This document shows positions 3,795 through 10,989 of a stretch of 14,195 nucleotides of DNA, piece after piece (position 1 is the stretch's first letter; every line of letters begins with the position of its first letter). Both the position numbers and the translations under genes were made by a program. Source of the stretch: a virus (Duplodnaviria > Heunggongvirae > Uroviricota > Caudoviricetes). The notes beneath the pieces are model-generated. The model did not search any database and was not told the origin of the DNA. It worked only from the letters and a program-made list of their open reading frames with translations. The stretch lies in the IMG/VR virus record IMGVR_UViG_2617270940_000003. One strand, 5' to 3'.

Positions 3795-4151
3795 TTAAAA
3801 AATCAGAACGCCGTGCGGCCTCAACACCCGAAAAGCTTCTTTAAATCTCTGTCGCAAATCATCACGCCAGGCATCTTTATTCAGCCGTCCATATTTCTTT
3901 CCCATCCAGGCGTTATCACCAACACGCTCAAGATGCGGAGGGTCTAATACAACCATCGAAAAAGATGCGTCTGCAAATGATAATGCACGAAAATCTGCGA
4001 TAATGTCAGGGCTGATAATCAAGCGTCTCCCATTGCGTAATGTGTATCCTTCTTTTCTGATATCGCTGAATATCGCCCGTTTGTCAGACTTATCGAACCA
4101 GAACATGCGGCTGCCACAGCACATATCAAGAATGGTTGCCGGTGCACTCAC
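3795..4151 (-). CDS. Putative DNA (amino) methyltransferase, probably C-terminally truncated (catalytic motifs I and IV only, 118 aa)
   Basis: ILDMCCGS (AdoMet-binding motif-I-like) near the N-terminus and VVLDPPH (DPPY/H-type motif IV) about 60 residues later. No room for a target-recognition domain. Start overlaps the upstream ORF stop (ATGA at 4148-4151). Downstream sequence is decayed. Confidence 0.5.
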   Translation of the reverse strand: MSAPATILDMCCGSRMFWFDKSDKRAIFSDIRKEGYTLRNGRRLIISPDIIADFRALSFADASFSMVVLDPPHLERVGDNAWMGKKYGRLNKDAWRDDLRQRFKEAFRVLRPHGVLIF

Positions 4152-4610: not shown

Positions 4611-4994
4611 TTATCCTCTGAAACCAGACGGAATTTCTGTATCCGGTTCAGAAATATGATTAACACAACGCTGTACAGGTGAACGTCCCAGGCGGATGAC
4701 CAGTTCGTCCCATTTTTCGCGGAGCTTTGACGGGCTCATGATGTTTTTTACCCAGAATGGATCTCGCTGAACCCGACCAAACATTTCGCAAATTTGTCTG
4801 TGGCTTCTGCCATCCAGCATCCGCATTGTGCGCACGTCATTGGCCCAGGCAGTCCAGTTAGGCTCTTTTGGTCGCATGATCTCGCCATCATCACTGGCTG
4901 CCTGTTCGTAGAGACCCACGATCCGCCCCCAGATCCACTGCGCACACGCCAAATCCTCCCTGCTACCCCACTGGCGTTTTTTCGCACTAAACAC
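4611..4994 (-). CDS. Probable C-terminal domain of the replication initiator, as a separate ORF because of an in-frame TAG; apparent GTG start
   Basis: Same minus-strand frame as 5025-5630. The only stop between them is the TAG at 5027-5025, followed by ten sense codons (DSLTRNSDAV) and then this ORF. Confidence 0.5.
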   Translation of the reverse strand: MFSAKKRQWGSREDLACAQWIWGRIVGLYEQAASDDGEIMRPKEPNWTAWANDVRTMRMLDGRSHRQICEMFGRVQRDPFWVKNIMSPSKLREKWDELVIRLGRSPVQRCVNHISEPDTEIPSGFRG

Positions 4995-5024
4995 AACCGC
5001 GTCGGAGTTCCGGGTTAAAGAATC

Positions 5025-5630
5025 CTATTCAGTCGTCTGCGGGTCCGGTTGCGAAGCTTCCGGACGAAAAGTGTTTTTATTCTCTGTAGTAATCTCTGTT
5101 GTATTCTCTGTAAGATCATCAGGCCATTTTGACCCGATGACATTGGGTCGTTTTGAACCAATGGAGCGTTTCATTTTGACCTCTTCCATCGTGTCATTTT
5201 GACCTGATGGAGCGGCGCATTTTGAACCGATGGATTCGCTCAATTTGCCACCATCTAAAAGCTCGCTCCCATAGTTGATCGTGTAGAAATTGGTCATATC
5301 GCGCTTTGATTTATTGAGCTTTTCACAACGCAAAAGCCCCAGCGTTTTCAGACTTGCAAACGCGCGCTTTAACGTTGACTCTGACCAGAATGGGAACTGT
5401 TCCAGCCATTGTTCCGTTGTGTTATAAATCCAGCGAACACCATCACATTCCATGCCGGAGTTGGTATCTCTCAACCAGTAGTGCAGTTGTTGCAAAACAA
5501 TGGCTTCGTTTAAGCCAATTTTCATTGCCAGCTGCGTGTTTATAACCAGTGGGCGTTCAGCAAAAAGAAGGCTCATAATTCCATCCAGCTTTTTGTTGGT
5601 ATTGCTGTCGATACGCAAGCTTGAAAGCAA
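5025..5630 (-). CDS. Replication initiator (lambda O-like replisome organiser), N-terminal DNA-binding domain plus linker; ends at an amber codon
   Basis: 201-aa ORF with ...LNEAIVLQQLHYWLRD... helix-turn-helix-like segment and a repetitive linker (SIGSK x3) whose coding DNA is the iteron array. Sits downstream of the Cro-like and cII-position genes. Alternative start Met19 at 5576. Confidence 0.6.
   Translation of the reverse strand: MLSSLRIDSNTNKKLDGIMSLLFAERPLVINTQLAMKIGLNEAIVLQQLHYWLRDTNSGMECDGVRWIYNTTEQWLEQFPFWSESTLKRAFASLKTLGLLRCEKLNKSKRDMTNFYTINYGSELLDGGKLSESIGSKCAAPSGQNDTMEEVKMKRSIGSKRPNVIGSKWPDDLTENTTEITTENKNTFRPEASQPDPQTTE
5124..5233. repeat. Five direct iterons (putative phage replication origin) inside the initiator gene
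   Basis: C(A/G)TTTTGA(A/C)C..GATGG-type repeats starting at 5125, 5149, 5172, 5195, 5218 (23-24 bp periodicity). Flanked at 5081-5111 by three TCTCTGT repeats at 12-bp spacing and an AT-rich tract at 5067-5080. Confidence 0.6.
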
Positions 5631-6078
5631 TTGCTTTTTCTATAAGTTCGTCAGTTTCACGATCCACTACGGCAGGATCAGCAAAAAGCAGTCCGGACTC
5701 CACCACATCGCCATATTCTTTGTTTAACCCGGCGATCATGCACGTGATGCTTTTTCCGTCAGTAATTTCACGATACAACCTGAAATCACTAATCCGGATA
5801 GCCTCCATAATCGCAGGCACTAGCGCCGTGAACTTTTCACGCTTATCCCTGGTGTCGATAGCCTTCCAGCGTTCGAATATCTTCACTCGATTAACACCAA
5901 GCGCTCGCTGATCAACCGCGCCACCTTCATCTGTGACACGCTGAACATCGATGTTCGGGCGCTCTTTCAAAGCCCAGAATGCTTCAGTGATTAATATCGT
6001 CGCCTGCTCCTGTGTCATTCCTGGTCGACATATCCAGGCATCCAGAGCCTCACGAGCCTGTTCAGGAGTGATTTTCAT
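5557..6078 (-). CDS. Hypothetical early protein at the cII position (second gene of the Cro-side operon), 173 aa
   Basis: Complete ORF immediately downstream of the Cro-like gene, overlapping it by 17 nt. No motif recognised. Function inferred only from position. Confidence 0.5.
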   Translation of the reverse strand: MKITPEQAREALDAWICRPGMTQEQATILITEAFWALKERPNIDVQRVTDEGGAVDQRALGVNRVKIFERWKAIDTRDKREKFTALVPAIMEAIRISDFRLYREITDGKSITCMIAGLNKEYGDVVESGLLFADPAVVDRETDELIEKAIAFKLAYRQQYQQKAGWNYEPSFC

Positions 6079-6289: not shown

Positions 6290-6303
6290 CAAAGCCCCCC
6301 TCT

Positions 6304-6321
6304 TGTTAGACTTTTCTAACA
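6304..6321. promoter_or_regulatory. Palindromic operator candidate TGTTAGA-cttt-TCTAACA in the dicA/dicC divergent promoter region
   Basis: Perfect 7-bp inverted arms with a 4-bp spacer. Same half-site as the palindrome downstream of dicA. Confidence 0.5.
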
Positions 6322-6370
6322 TTATTGTGCGCGGGATACCTAAGTCAAGAAAAATTAGAATTACCTAACT

Positions 6371-6778
6371 ATGGATACAAGAACCCTGGGCCAGCGAGTT
6401 CTGGCGCGACGAAAAGAATTACGCTTAACACAACGAGAAGCCGCGCGCCTCGCTGGAGTTGCTCACGTCACAATTTCACAATGGGAAAGAGACGAAACCC
6501 AGCCAGTCGGAAAACGATTGTTTGCTTTAGCGGATGCTCTGAAGTGCTCACCTACATGGCTAATGTTTGGTGACGAAGACAAGGCACCAGTGCCTGCACA
6601 AGAACTTCATGTGGAAACAGAGCTAACTCCCAACCACAAAGAATTGATCGAATTATTCGATGCTCTTCCATCTTCCGAGCAGGAAGCCTTGCTGTCTGAA
6701 ATGCGCGCAAGAGTAGAAAACTTCAACAAACTCTTCGAAGAAATGCTTAAAGCGCGTAAAAATAAATCAATAAAATAA
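6371..6778 (+). CDS. dicA: XRE-family HTH repressor, DicA-like (repressor of the division-inhibition operon)
   Basis: 135-aa ORF. HTH LTQREAARLAGVAHVTISQWE. Segments ...SPTWLMFGDEDK..., ...ELIELFDALPSSEQ..., ...EMRARVENFNKLFEEMLKAR... match my recollection of E. coli DicA. No S24 peptidase domain. Confidence 0.85.
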   Translation: MDTRTLGQRVLARRKELRLTQREAARLAGVAHVTISQWERDETQPVGKRLFALADALKCSPTWLMFGDEDKAPVPAQELHVETELTPNHKELIELFDALPSSEQEALLSEMRARVENFNKLFEEMLKARKNKSIK

Positions 6779-6813
6779 CATTCTTTTCAAGTGATTAGTT
6801 GCGCCCACCCTTT

Positions 6814-6833
6814 TTGTTAGATCAATCTAACAA
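6814..6833. promoter_or_regulatory. Palindromic operator candidate TTGTTAGA-tcaa-TCTAACAA upstream of ydfA, with a degenerate third copy at about 6851-6867
   Basis: Perfect 8-bp inverted arms with a 4-bp spacer between the dicA stop and ydfA. Partial copy tgttagg-tta-ttctaaa at 6851-6867. Confidence 0.5.
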
Positions 6834-6946
6834 AAAACACTTGCCTCTCATGTTAGGTTATTCTAAATTATTTTCCATCAAGACACCGCACGGTGTTCTC
6901 AGCAAACAGTTCCGCTACCCCGGCGTTAAGGGGAAATGAGGTCAGC

Positions 6947-7102
6947 ATGGATACTATCGATCTTGGCAACAGCGAATCTCTGGTATGTGGCGTGTTCCCC
7001 AACCAGGACGGTACGTTCACCGCGATGACGTATACCAAAAGCAAAACGTTTAAAACCGAAAATGGTGCCCGTCGCTGGCTGGAAAGAAACCCAGGTGAGT
7101 GA
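6947..7102 (+). CDS. ydfA: Small Qin-type prophage protein YdfA-like (51 aa)
   Basis: MDTIDLGNSESLVCGVFPNQDGTFTAMTYTKSKTFKTENGARRWLERNPGE with a GAGG Shine-Dalgarno 7 nt upstream. First gene of the operon leading to dicF and dicB. Confidence 0.75.
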   Translation: MDTIDLGNSESLVCGVFPNQDGTFTAMTYTKSKTFKTENGARRWLERNPGE

Positions 7103-7103
7103 T

Positions 7104-7232
7104 ATGGATTTCGACACAATCATGGAAAAGGCTTACGAAGAATACTTCGAAGGTCTTGCCGACGGCGAAGAAGCTCTCAGCTTCAACGAATTTAAACAGG
7201 CGCTTTCCAGTTCGGCAAAATCTAACGGCTGA
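7104..7232 (+). CDS. ydfB: Small Qin-type prophage protein YdfB-like (42 aa); below the 60-aa ORF-track cutoff
   Basis: ATG 1 nt after the ydfA stop. MDFDTIMEKAYEEYFEGLADGEEALSFNEFKQALSSSAKSNG, stop TGA at 7230-7232. Confidence 0.7.
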   Translation: MDFDTIMEKAYEEYFEGLADGEEALSFNEFKQALSSSAKSNG

Positions 7233-7261
7233 TAAGCGAAACAGCACCGCGAGGAATCAGT

Positions 7262-7480
7262 ATGCAGAAACGAGAACCCGTCATCATCGCGCCAGACTAT
7301 ACCGATGATGAACTTTATGAGTGGATGCGCCAGAAAATTAATGCAGCGCAGGATTTGAAATGGGCCAATGAAACCAGGGCTAAGCAGGCTGAAAATCTGT
7401 CCGCTCTGGAGCAGGATATCACCAATCTGGAAAAAGCAGCGGCATTAAGCATTGCCAGAATGATTACATACCCGCGTTAG
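7262..7480 (+). CDS. ydfC: Small Qin-type prophage protein YdfC-like (72 aa), coiled-coil-like
   Basis: Complete ORF with a GAGGA Shine-Dalgarno; position and length match ydfC of the dicB operon. Confidence 0.7.
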   Translation: MQKREPVIIAPDYTDDELYEWMRQKINAAQDLKWANETRAKQAENLSALEQDITNLEKAAALSIARMITYPR

Positions 7481-7820: not shown

Positions 7821-7873
7821 TTTCTGGTGACGTTTGGCGGTATCAGTTTTACTCCGTGACTGCTCTGCCGCCC
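7821..7873 (+). ncRNA. dicF: DicF small antisense RNA (about 53 nt), followed by its intrinsic terminator T-run at 7874-7878
   Basis: Sequence tttctggtgacgtttggcggtatcagttttactccgtgactgctctgccgccc followed by ttttt matches the DicF sRNA as I recall it. GC stem (ggcgg at 7836-7840 pairing with ccgcc at 7868-7872) immediately before the T-run. Confidence 0.8.
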
Positions 7874-8047: not shown

Positions 8048-8236
8048 ATGAAAACGTTATTACCAAACGTTAATACGTCTGAAGGTTGTTTTGAAATTGG
8101 TGTCACTATCAGTAACCCAGTATTTACTGAAGATGCCATTAACAAGAGAAAACAAGAACGGGAGCTATTAAATAAAATATGCATTGTTTCAATGCTGGCT
8201 CGTTTACGTCTGATGCCAAAAGGATGTGCACAATGA
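8048..8236 (+). CDS. dicB: Cell-division inhibitor DicB (acts via MinC), 62 aa
   Basis: Internal ATG of the listed 97-aa ORF, with a GAGGA Shine-Dalgarno. MKTLLPNVNTSEGCFEIGVTISNPVFTEDAINKRKQERELLNKICIVSMLARLRLMPKGCAQ matches recalled DicB. Confidence 0.85.
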   Translation: MKTLLPNVNTSEGCFEIGVTISNPVFTEDAINKRKQERELLNKICIVSMLARLRLMPKGCAQ

Positions 8237-8424
8237 ATTCAGCATTTGTGCTTGTTCTGACAGTTTTTCTTGTTTCCGGAGAGCCAGTTGATATTGCAGT
8301 CAGTGTGCACAGGACAATGCAGGAGTGTATGACTGCAGCAACCGAACAGAAAATTCCCGGTAACTGTTACCCGGTCGATAAAGTTATTCACCAGGATAAT
8401 ATCGAAATCCCGGCAGGTCTTTAA
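8233..8424 (+). CDS. ydfD: YdfD-like small membrane lysis protein, 63 aa
   Basis: ATG overlapping the dicB stop (ATGA). MNSAFVLVLTVFLVSGEPVDIAVSVHRTMQECMTAATEQKIPGNCYPVDKVIHQDNIEIPAGL with a hydrophobic N-terminal segment. Confidence 0.8.
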   Translation: MNSAFVLVLTVFLVSGEPVDIAVSVHRTMQECMTAATEQKIPGNCYPVDKVIHQDNIEIPAGL

Positions 8425-8517: not shown

Positions 8518-10989
8518 ATGAGTAAAGTCTTTATTTGCGCCGCTATTCCTGACGAACTGGCAACAAGGGAAGAAGGCGCTGTGGCTGTAGCCACAGCCAT
8601 TGAAGCTGGCGACGAACGCCGTGCTCGAGCAAAATTTCACTGGCAGTTCCTGGAACATTATCCGGCTGCTCAGGACTGCGCTTATAAATTTATTGTCTGC
8701 GAGGATAAACCTGGCATACCCCGCCCTGCCCTCGATTCATGGGATGCTGAATATATGCAGGAAAACCGCTGGGATGAGGAGTCTGCTTCTTTTGTCCCGG
8801 TTGAGACTGAATCCGATCCGATGAACGTCACTTTTGACAAGCTGGCCCCTGAAGTACAGAACGCTGTCATGGTTAAGTTCGACACATGTGAAAACATCAC
8901 CGTTGATATGGTTATTAGCGCACAGGAATTGTTGCAGGAAGACATGGCAACATTCGACGGACATATCGTTGAAGCGTTGATGAAAATGCCAGAAGTTAAC
9001 GCCATGTATCCGGAGCTTAAGTTGCACGCCATTGGGTGGGTTAAGCATAAATGTATTCCTGGTGCTAAATGGCCCGAAATTCAGGCAGAGATGCGCATCT
9101 GGAAAAAACGTCGCGAAGGTGAACGCAAGGAAACCGGAAAATACACGTCTGTTGTTGATCTCGCCCGCGCCAGAACCAATCAACAGTACACTGAAAATTC
9201 AACAGGAAAAATCAGCCCGGTCATTGCTGCCATTCATCGCGAATACAAGCAGACATGGAAAACACTGGATGACGAACTGGCCTACGCTCTCTGGCCTGGT
9301 GATGTGGATGCCGGAAACATTGACGGCAGCATCCATCGCTGGGCAAAAAAAGAAGTTATCGACAACGACCGCGAAGACTGGAAGCGTATCTCGGCATCAA
9401 TGCGCAAACAGCCTGATGCCCTTCGCTACGACCGCCAGACTATTTTTGGCCTTGTCCGTGAGCGTCCGATCGACATTCACAAAGATCCCATAGCACTGAA
9501 CAAATATATCTGCGAATACCTGACGACAAAGGGCGTGTTTGAGAATGAAGAAACAGACCTGGGCACTGTTGATGTTCTCCAGTCATCAGAAACACAAACT
9601 GATGCAGTGGAAACTGAGGTATCTGATATCCCAAAAAATGAAACCGCGCCGGAAGCTGAACCATCTGTAGAGCGTGAGGGGCCGTTCTATTTCCTCTTCG
9701 CAGATAAGGACGGAGAAAAATACGGTCGCGCAAACAAACTTTCTGGTCTGGATAAGGCACTGGCTGCTGGCGCCACTGAAATCACAAAAGAAGAATATTT
9801 TGCCCGAAAAAATGGCACATACACGGGCTTACCGCAAAATGTAGATACCGCTGAAGATTCAGAACAACCAGAGCCGATAAAAGTTACCGCTGACGAAGTA
9901 AACAAAATTATGCAGGCAGCCAATATCAGCCAGCCTGACGCCGATAAGTTGCTTGCTGCATCACGTGGTGAATTTGTTGAAGGGATTAGTGACCCGAATG
10001 ATCCGAAATGGGTTAAGGGGATCCAGACCCGCGATTCTGTGAACCAGAACCAGCATGAATCGGAACGGAACTACCAAAAAGCGGAACAAAACAGCACAAA
10101 TGCGTTACAAAACGAGCCAGAAACGAAACAGCCTGAACCAGTGGCGCAACTGGAAGTGGAAAAAGTCTGCACCGCCTGCGGTCAGACCGGCGGCGGCAAC
10201 TGCCCTGATTGTGGCGCGGTGATGGGCGACGCAACATACCAGGAAACATTCGATGAAGAGTATCAGGTTGAAGTTCAGGAAGATGATCTGGAGGAAATGG
10301 AAGGCGCTGAACATCCACACAAGGAGAACACTGGCGGCAATCAGCATCACAATAGCGATAATGAAACTGGCGAGACGGCAGATCACTCAATTAAGGTGAA
10401 CGGTCATCACGAAATCACATCCACCAGCAGGACGTGTGACCATCTAATGATCGACCTTGAAACCATGGGAAAAAATCCTGATGCCCCGATCATCTCAATA
10501 GGTGCAATATTTTTCGATCCGCAAACCGGAGATATGGGACCGGAATTTAGTAAGACTATCGATCTGGAAACTGCTGGCGGAGTCATTGATCGGGACACCA
10601 TTAAATGGTGGCTTAAGCAATCACGCGAAGCGCAATCTGCCATTATGACCGATGAAATCCCGTTAGATGATGCACTGTTACAATTGCGGGAATTTATCGA
10701 CGAAAACTCCGGTGAATTTTTTGTTCAGGTTTGGGGAAATGGAGCCAACTTCGACAACACGATTTTGCGCCGTTCATACGAACGGCAGGGGATCCCCTGC
10801 CCGTGGCGTTACTACAACGATCGCGATGTACGCACAATCGTTGAGCTGGGGAAAGCCATAGACTTCGATGCCAGAACGGCTATTCCATTCGAAGGTGAGC
10901 GCCATAATGCACTTGATGACGCCCGTTACCAGGCAAAATACGTTTCAGTTATCTGGCAAAAACTGATCCCGAGTCAGGCTGATTCTTAA
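8518..10989 (+). CDS. Large multidomain prophage protein: N-terminal region of unknown function, CxxC-x7-CxxC zinc ribbon, acidic linker, C-terminal DEDDh-type 3'-5' exonuclease domain (occupies the ydfE position)
   Basis: Uninterrupted 823-codon frame. Zinc ribbon CTACGQTGGGNCPDCG encoded at 10168-10212. Exonuclease motifs: Exo I MIDLETMG (D646, E648), Exo II GNGANFDNTIL (D746), Exo III HNALDDARY (H796, D800). Last gene of the plus-strand operon before xis/int. Confidence 0.85.
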   Translation: MSKVFICAAIPDELATREEGAVAVATAIEAGDERRARAKFHWQFLEHYPAAQDCAYKFIVCEDKPGIPRPALDSWDAEYMQENRWDEESASFVPVETESDPMNVTFDKLAPEVQNAVMVKFDTCENITVDMVISAQELLQEDMATFDGHIVEALMKMPEVNAMYPELKLHAIGWVKHKCIPGAKWPEIQAEMRIWKKRREGERKETGKYTSVVDLARARTNQQYTENSTGKISPVIAAIHREYKQTWKTLDDELAYALWPGDVDAGNIDGSIHRWAKKEVIDNDREDWKRISASMRKQPDALRYDRQTIFGLVRERPIDIHKDPIALNKYICEYLTTKGVFENEETDLGTVDVLQSSETQTDAVETEVSDIPKNETAPEAEPSVEREGPFYFLFADKDGEKYGRANKLSGLDKALAAGATEITKEEYFARKNGTYTGLPQNVDTAEDSEQPEPIKVTADEVNKIMQAANISQPDADKLLAASRGEFVEGISDPNDPKWVKGIQTRDSVNQNQHESERNYQKAEQNSTNALQNEPETKQPEPVAQLEVEKVCTACGQTGGGNCPDCGAVMGDATYQETFDEEYQVEVQEDDLEEMEGAEHPHKENTGGNQHHNSDNETGETADHSIKVNGHHEITSTSRTCDHLMIDLETMGKNPDAPIISIGAIFFDPQTGDMGPEFSKTIDLETAGGVIDRDTIKWWLKQSREAQSAIMTDEIPLDDALLQLREFIDENSGEFFVQVWGNGANFDNTILRRSYERQGIPCPWRYYNDRDVRTIVELGKAIDFDARTAIPFEGERHNALDDARYQAKYVSVIWQKLIPSQADS

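Follow-up and report, generated by a model that had tools for sequence, protein, structure and literature searches.

The window, by which we mean the whole 14,195-bp stretch of DNA analysed here, is a Qin-like defective lambdoid prophage of Escherichia coli and covers its immunity and early-left region. The 1.7 kb around the sites described below show 100% identity to the CFSAN064036 chromosome of E. coli, in which dicB, ydfA-D, YdaT and Cro/CI genes are annotated; over 7.7 kb the identity to this chromosome is 99.96%. Most of the 1.7-kb version is carried by about 110 of 5,426 complete E. coli genomes. The features of the locus are collected in Table 1. A short HTH_3 repressor gene, dicA, lies divergent from a P22_Cro-type gene, dicC. 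Pfam found no peptidase S24 domain in the 135-aa DicA, of which residues 1-71 match the DNA-binding domain of P22 c2 (1e-18), and judged by its sequence this is a diverged dicA allele, different from that of K-12.

On the dicC side, the ydaT-like gene is the second gene of the dicC (PR-like) operon and, by its position, a CII analogue, a role that YdaT of prophage CP-933P has been shown to play (PMC8630535). On the other side of dicA, dicB and ydfD are the toxic cargo of the operon that begins with ydfABC; the annotation of the CFSAN064036 genome and Pfam give concordant gene calls, with an exonuclease gene after ydfD. A tblastn search of the window for the K-12 antirepressor Rem gave no significant homolog (best E = 0.15). 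IS-type ORFs occupy the left part of the window, at the position expected for rem. Rem could be encoded elsewhere in the genome, and it is an accessory feature rather than a defining one of a Qin-type switch.

Table 1. Genes, promoters and predicted operator sites at the dicA locus (positions in the window).
Feature	Position	Strand	Evidence and remarks
ydaT-like gene	5557..6078	-	Pfam YdaT_toxin, 5.6e-05; "toxin YdaT family protein" in NZ_CP028166.1
dicC-like gene (Cro analogue), 75 aa	6062..6289	-	Pfam P22_Cro, 4.9e-12; 86% identity to K-12 DicC
Oc, predicted operator, TTGTTAGActttTCTAACAT	6303..6322		the 7-N4-7 palindrome at 6304-6321 is perfect; lines up in every column with K-12 Oc, TTGTTAGTCATAACTAACAA
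dicC promoter, predicted	6321..6348	-	-35 TTGACT (6348-6343), 16-nt spacer, -10 AATAAT (6326-6321)
candidate middle operator ("Om" position), weak	6328..6345		half-site only, CTAA at 6340-6343; 24-25 bp from Oc and Oa
Oa, predicted operator, AATTAGAattaCCTAACT	6353..6370		abuts the dicA ATG; 49-51 bp from Oc in the nine intact loci, L026 and L027
dicA-like repressor gene, 135 aa	6371..6778	+	Pfam HTH_3, 1.5e-14; 57% identity to K-12 DicA
candidate third site of the dicBp region, weak	6793..6810		half-site only, TTAG at 6795-6798; 22 bp upstream of the distal palindrome
distal operator of dicBp, predicted, TTTTTGTTAGATcaATCTAACAAAAA	6811..6836		perfect palindrome; centre about 52 bp upstream of the predicted start
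dicBp (PL-like) promoter, predicted	6841..6869	+	-35 TTGCCT (6841-6846), 17-nt spacer, -10 TAAATT (6864-6869)
proximal operator of dicBp, predicted, TGTTAGGttatTCTAAAT	6851..6868		in the spacer and -10 of the predicted dicBp
ydfA, ydfB, ydfC, first genes of the dicB operon	6947..7480	+	annotation of a near-identical genome; ydfA, DUF1391, 1.3e-27
DicF small RNA	7822..7873	+	Rfam RF00039, 76.7 bits, E = 8e-16
dicB (cell-division inhibitor) and ydfD (lysis protein)	8048..8424	+	Pfam DicB, 1.9e-40, and DUF1482, 3.9e-26; genome annotation

Palindromic sites and predicted promoters on both sides of dicA

The initial annotation had pointed to three related palindromic sites around dicA, all of which are present. 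The first, TGTTAGA-N4-TCTAACA (TGTTAGActttTCTAACA), is read directly at 6304-6321 as a perfect 7-N4-7 palindrome, exactly as had been stated, and a second perfect copy of the same pattern lies at 6815-6832 inside TTGTTAGAtcaaTCTAACAA (6814-6833). The latter 20 bp had been taken as the whole of the second site; the palindrome and its shared half-site hold, but a repeat search extends the arms to 12 nt each (6811-6822 and 6825-6836, 100% complementary). The third, a degenerate copy, had been placed at 6851-6867 and in fact ends one base further, at 6868. A fourth site, immediately before the dicA ATG at 6353-6370, had been overlooked and was recovered by the repeat search, and there are possibly two more positions with a half-site only. 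The reverse complement of the fourth site (6355-6369) and the degenerate copy (6852-6866) are identical at 14 of 15 bases.

The matched palindromes are non-random. With up to three mismatches allowed, the 18-bp pattern TGTTAGA-N4-TCTAACA occurs at four sites in 14,195 bp (two of them exact) against 0.61 expected, and the core TTAG-N6-CTAA occurs exactly four times in the window, with starts at 6306, 6355, 6817 and 6853, against a chance expectation of 0.14; none of 200 shuffles gave four. All four cores are confined to the two regulatory regions on either side of dicA. One of the four pattern matches, at 4082-4099, was considered as a fifth site and dismissed, as it has three mismatches and no TTAG core and is probably due to chance.

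The predicted dicC promoter matches the consensus at 10 of 12 positions in a sigma-70 scan and has the same -35 in the aligned columns of K-12. The 20-nt inverted repeat Oc lies at the -10 of this promoter, its palindrome beginning at the last base of the -10 and covering the predicted dicC start; compared with K-12 Oc, 15 of 20 bases are identical and the core is invariant. Inside Oa there is a -10-like TAGAAT (6356-6361) that ends 9 nt before the dicA ATG, and reading of the sequence before dicA gave no Shine-Dalgarno sequence; because of these two features dicA is probably near-leaderless, like lambda cI and paaR2.

Downstream of dicA, related sites occur at the PL-like dicBp, which drives ydfABC-dicF-dicB-ydfD. 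The predicted dicBp agrees with the consensus at 8 of 12 positions, below the threshold of the promoter scan; its -35 TTG is invariant in the nine loci compared below, and the columns aligned to it in K-12 read TTGACC and TAATCT, again separated by 17 nt. The distal palindrome is located just upstream of the predicted -35, outside the core promoter, and it is the degenerate site, not a perfect palindrome, that appears to sit on the core promoter itself.

Clear sites thus number two per region, spaced 49 and 36 bp. A full third operator in each region, as stated in the K-12 literature, was sought and only the half-site candidates at 6328-6345 and 6793-6810 were found; these weak candidates would give spacings of 22-25 bp. 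At the "Om" position, CCTAAG is conserved in all loci but K-12, a conservation that is ambiguous because it overlaps the dicC -35 and that may stem from the promoter. At 6793-6810, only GTTA-like bases are partly conserved across the loci.

Co-variation of half-sites and repressor across genera

Relatives of the locus were collected by a DicA protein scan with one genome per species, and intact ones were obtained from E. ruysiae, E. albertii, two Citrobacter, Buttiauxella, Enterobacter hormaechei, Pantoea stewartii and Erwinia. Among its further matches were frameshifted pseudogenes of E. coli and Shigella; loci with a frameshifted dicA pseudogene (L011-L013) were excluded from the co-variation analysis, and twelve Campylobacter matches (L014-L025) were set aside, as only a 34-residue stretch matched. 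The four-site layout is found in all nine intact loci (the window and the eight relatives), which represent six genera, and in two phage records: an Oc-like site upstream, an Oa-like site abutting the ATG 49-51 bp further on, and a distal and a proximal site downstream. The latter two are 35-36 bp apart wherever both could be located, also in phage HannyBb, and the position of the distal site is kept in all loci, though K-12 and L008-L010 have a degenerate right half there. In L008-L010 a separate hairpin, GC-rich and terminator-like, follows dicA.

The half-site reads (T)GTTAG in Escherichia, Citrobacter and Buttiauxella. Enterobacter, Pantoea and Erwinia have (C)CTTAG at Oc; their proximal site likewise shows CTTAG, and the left half of their distal site is weaker, reading CTTAG or TTTAG. 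At Oc the change of class is symmetric in both arms, from GTTAG...CTAAC to CTTAG...CTAAG, and in the CTTAG class CC or TC replaces TG or CG on the left flank of the proximal site. A third class, TTGAG, comes from phage HannyBb (L026), where a DicA-like repressor that is 52% identical and carries a different recognition helix goes with the half-site ATTGAG-N4-CTCAAT; all four sites are retained there, spaced 49 and 36 bp. The three independent classes (GTTAG, CTTAG and TTGAG; n = 3) switch jointly on both sides of dicA. The recognition helix is identical between the GTTAG and CTTAG classes, and helix 2 of DicA reads TQR(E/S) in the former and SQAALGK in the latter, as in P22 c2.

A natural recombinant, L027 (a prophage region in LC567820), combines a DicC that is 92% identical to that of the window with a DicA whose N-terminal domain shares 89% identity with the CTTAG class; its operators are of the CTTAG type. 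In this recombinant the flank base of the half-site follows DicA and not DicC. Taken over three independent classes, the co-variation is good indirect evidence that one protein, DicA, would read the sites on both sides of its own gene. Between the window and K-12, the sequence diverges in a block running approximately from Oc to the proximal site, outside which the identity is at least 93%.

A probable Qin-type immunity switch and the alternatives

Control of dicA, dicC and dicB in K-12 is said to have been described by Bejar et al. in 1986 and 1988, and the dicA/dicC/dicB region was re-examined by Yun et al. in 2012 and by Ragunathan et al. in 2023. In K-12, DicA binds the 20-nt inverted repeat Oc in vivo in a dicA-dependent manner, and binding is lost when the first A of CTAA is changed to C (PMC3441716); this critical base is kept in the window, at 6318. 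With DicA at Oc, dicC is repressed and dicA is activated, and the dicC start as mapped by 5'RACE has Oc overlapping the dicC -10 (PMC3441716). DicA also represses dicBp, the promoter upstream of ydfA: deletion of dicA raises its activity 22-fold (PMC10448788). The dicA-dicC and dicA-dicBp intergenic regions have been described as containing operators that resemble the ones at lambda PR and PL, with DicA and DicC forming a bistable CI/Cro-like switch and Rem acting as antirepressor (Ragunathan et al., PMC10448788). The Reg-Seq survey rates a DicA site at dicB as low-evidence, with its location unknown (PMC7567609), and the downstream operators therefore rest on sequence and genetics only.

We consider it very likely that the sites in the window are the operators of a Qin-type lambdoid prophage immunity switch. 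Within this scheme we infer the promoter positions of the window, binding by this DicA allele, cooperativity and the role of Oa. DicA, with a P22 c2-like helix-turn-helix and a short C-terminal region that lacks the RecA-cleavable domain, would most likely be dimeric on 18-20-bp sites with the TTAG-N6-CTAA core. Bound at Oc, it would cover the dicC -10 and start and keep the dicC-ydaT (PR-like) operon off, and occupancy of Oc would, as in K-12, activate a weak and probably near-leaderless dicA promoter. A filled proximal site would block RNA polymerase, leaving ydfABC, DicF, dicB and ydfD silent, and the distal palindrome, 36 bp upstream, may serve as a high-affinity anchor that helps to fill the weaker proximal site. 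Oa, on the -10-like element and start codon of dicA, may allow dicA to be turned down by DicC or by excess DicA.

The initial annotation had proposed a compact immunity switch in which the Cro-like gene and the toxic operon are both under one repressor dimer. The switch itself agrees with the K-12 DicA experiments and with the co-variation of the half-sites, but its description needs to be widened, as DicC, judged by lambda, P22 and CP-933P and by K-12 genetics, very probably shares its sites with DicA, and "one repressor dimer" is therefore an incomplete account. A stronger form of this, complementary to the DicA reading and in our estimate only a little short of an even chance, takes the sites to be mainly or equally operators of the Cro-like DicC, above all Oa and the proximal site. 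In lambdoid switches, operators are common to repressor and Cro, and lambda Cro acts at OR3 and OL. The likeness between Oa and the proximal site (14/15) exceeds the likeness of either to the perfect palindromes. Footprints of PaaR2 and YdaS overlap on the four palindromes of CP-933P (PMC8630535), overproduced DicC represses dicA in K-12, where dicC is also required to switch dicBp on (PMC10448788), and K-12 Om and Oa alone are not bound by DicA in vivo (PMC3441716), so the weak sites may need cooperativity or may belong to DicC. It is DicA, however, on which binding at K-12 Oc depends (PMC3441716), deletion of dicC left K-12 dicBp activity unchanged (PMC10448788), and the flank base in L027 tracks the class of DicA while DicC stays window-like.

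Two other readings do without repressor binding. The palindromes might act as RNA hairpins, either as a terminator or stabiliser of the dicA transcript or, in the dicC leader, as a structure affecting translation, and in this allele the folding is indeed stable: 6800-6850 folds at -10.2 kcal/mol (z = -5.2) and the dicC-leader hairpin at -6 kcal/mol (z = -3.2). Yet no U-run follows the hairpin on either strand, the K-12 equivalent is no more stable than shuffled sequences (z = -1.3), L008-L010 have a degenerate right arm and a terminator-like hairpin of their own after dicA, and what is conserved are TTAG-N6-CTAA DNA half-sites common to unlinked sites rather than the pairing of a stem of free sequence. 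We regard the hairpin reading as very improbable and reject it, given that the structure is stable in this allele and not in K-12 and lacks a U-run. It is scarcely conceivable that the sites are a chance resemblance, or a relic of module exchange at the borders of a swappable dicA cassette, with no binding function. They do sit at the mosaic borders of the block that diverges between the window and K-12, but four cores against 0.14 expected, their palindromic form, the retention of spacing and promoter position across genera, the switching of half-sites with the type of DicA, and the loss of DicA binding by point mutants of K-12 Oc (PMC3441716) all speak against this; statistics, conservation and the K-12 mutants lead us to reject it.

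The reading as operators of a compact immunity switch is thereby supported, but it is already known from the published K-12 model, of which the window is an orthologous, allelic copy; the arrangement is the textbook lambdoid one and carries little weight for discovery. What is added is the fourth site, Oa, the weak site on the dicBp core promoter, the probable use of the sites by DicC as well, the resolution of the half-site into a core and a class-determining flank base, and a recombinant that assigns the flank base to DicA. The two dicBp sites are placed to the base by cross-genus comparison, against a location listed as unknown by Reg-Seq (PMC7567609). The allele is also a cleaner one, with perfect palindromes that would be useful for footprinting, and the half-site classes predict which Qin-like prophages are homo-immune and which hetero-immune.

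Relation to known prophage switches

The closest counterpart is the Qin (Kim) prophage of K-12, which has the same order of genes, a ydaT/ydfX-like gene, dicC, dicA, ydfABC, DicF, dicB and ydfD, and operators in the same aligned columns with the same TTAG-N6-CTAA core, spaced 36 bp at dicBp and 49-50 bp between Oc and Oa. Both have Oc on the dicC -10 and a DicA of 135 aa without a cleavage domain. The two differ at position 7 of the half-site, which is TGTTAGA here and TGTTAGT or TGTTAGC in K-12, and in the 4-bp centre; at the distal dicBp site, the perfect 26-bp palindrome of the window stands against a degenerate TGTTAGCtataGCATACA in K-12, and the K-12 "Om" sequence is not conserved in the window. 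The replication, ydaT and exonuclease genes are truncated in K-12 Qin and not in the window, whereas the homolog of Rem is missing within the window.

Phage P22 immC shares more general features. The N-terminal domain of DicA resembles that of c2 (1e-18) and DicC resembles P22_Cro, and in both systems the operators are 18 bp long and built on a 7-N4-7 frame, with TTA in common at positions 3-5 of the half-site. They lie on either side of the repressor gene, where they govern divergent PR/PRM-like and PL-like promoters. The consensus of the P22 operators is ANTNAAG-N4-CTTNANT. P22 c2, however, has 216 aa and a RecA-cleavable C-terminal domain, in contrast to the 135-aa DicA, which lacks one; induction in K-12 proceeds through an antirepressor (Rem) or repressor instability and not through SOS, again in contrast to P22, and there are two clear sites per region here instead of three.

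With lambda CI/Cro the locus has the logic in common, a repressor that holds both early promoters off while activating its own leaderless gene, and a Cro-type protein that competes for the same sites and so creates bistability. The C-terminal part of the repressor belongs to a different fold family, the operator regions lie 0.5 kb apart here and 2.4 kb apart in lambda, and the sites are spaced 36 and 49 bp rather than 23-24 bp. Octamer looping as in lambda is without support here, and the loci compared do not point to looping as a constraint on Oc and the distal dicBp site: their distance is 511 bp in three Escherichia loci, 518 bp in Citrobacter, 517 bp in Buttiauxella and 564 bp in Enterobacter, and since it varies, helical phase is not conserved.

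Prophage CP-933P of E. coli O157:H7, which encodes PaaR2, YdaS and YdaT, offers a further parallel, with a repressor analogue, a divergent Cro analogue and YdaT as CII analogue, four palindromes, a repressor gene that is leaderless, control of a PL-like promoter by these regulators, and bistability in a cryptic prophage (PMC8630535). Unlike the window, its PaaR2 is unrelated in sequence to DicA, its repressor operon holds a toxin-antitoxin pair, and all four palindromes lie in a single intergenic region.

A joint reading, which we hold to be unlikely, would combine a loop of DicA oligomers around dicA with a division of labour in which DicA classes split via helix 2 and DicC reads the core only. 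The two dicBp sites, strong distal and weak proximal, and the pair formed by Oc and Oa, 0.5 kb away, might then be bridged, and helix 2, with Arg (TQRE) or Ala (SQAALGK), would read the base flanking the invariant TTAG. If this latter part were true, a single DicC could act across heteroimmune Qin-like prophages in one cell, as the recombinant L027 suggests.

Conserved leader of the ydfA operon

Six genera and one phage record (L027, the prophage region in LC567820, a natural dicA/dicC recombinant) conserve the ydfA-operon leader, whose GTTCCG motif is invariant throughout this set. Locus comparison also revealed a hairpin, CCCC-GGCGTTAA-GGGG, lying 3′ of this motif and carrying two compensatory pairs, as well as a further conserved stretch, CACCGCACGGTG. 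The leader could act as a nut-like or processing signal.

dicA and the sequence downstream of it in related loci

Among the related loci, those of Citrobacter and Buttiauxella (L005-L007) have ydfA replaced by a GC-rich hairpin, AGCGCCCtactGGACGCT, located ~170-200 nt past the dicA stop codon. In Citrobacter Cu233 (L005) this hairpin is followed by CGCTCTTTAACAA, which we take to resemble the boxA antitermination element, and close variants occur in L006 (CGTTCTTTAACAA) and L007 (AGCTCTTTAAAAA). Enterobacter, Pantoea and Erwinia (L008-L010) carry a hairpin and then a T-rich stretch directly 3′ of the dicA stop, for example CCCGTTTTCTACGGGTATTTTT, an arrangement that looks like a terminator. 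Between dicA and dicBp, the promoter upstream of the ydfA operon, the Escherichia loci have no comparable terminator-like hairpin.

Three further loci (L011, L012, L013), one from E. coli ECMA0423 and the others from two genomes of Shigella flexneri, have dicA itself disrupted by frameshifts. In L011 and L013 Oc, the operator palindrome at the dicC promoter, has likewise decayed; the L012 pseudogene locus retains a perfect palindrome, TGTTAGAttttTCTAACA.

Flanking genes and a nonsense change

The window contains a hok/sok module, marked by a sok antisense RNA that scores 104 bits against Rfam, and two IS-type ORFs lie to the left of sok, the shorter of which presumably resembles IS1 InsA, while the longer reads like a transposase when judged by eye. 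K-12 Qin differs in having rem, its antirepressor gene, at the place of these ORFs, and tblastn of K-12 Rem against the window returned no homolog. The exonuclease gene is intact in the window; its K-12 counterpart is cut off by IS2.

Features of the window
Feature	Position	Strand	Remarks
IS-type ORF	210-485	minus	91 aa; left of sok
IS-type ORF	790-2130	minus	446 aa; left of sok
sok match	2204-2375	minus	
O-like replication gene	within 4611-5576	minus	in-frame TAG at 5025-5027
ydfA-operon leader	6876-6946		
CACCGCACGGTG stretch	6884-6895		
GTTCCG	6909-6914		
Leader hairpin	6920-6935		
Exonuclease gene	8518-10989		823 aa; Rv2179c-like 3′-5′ exoribonuclease domain, residues 642-813

Sequence comparison with the near-identical E. 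coli genome NZ_CP028166.1 gave three base differences over 7.7 kb (positions 5027, 7734 and 9681), the first of which changes CAG to the in-frame TAG of the O-like replication gene; the counterpart in NZ_CP028166.1 is annotated as intact, with 321 aa.
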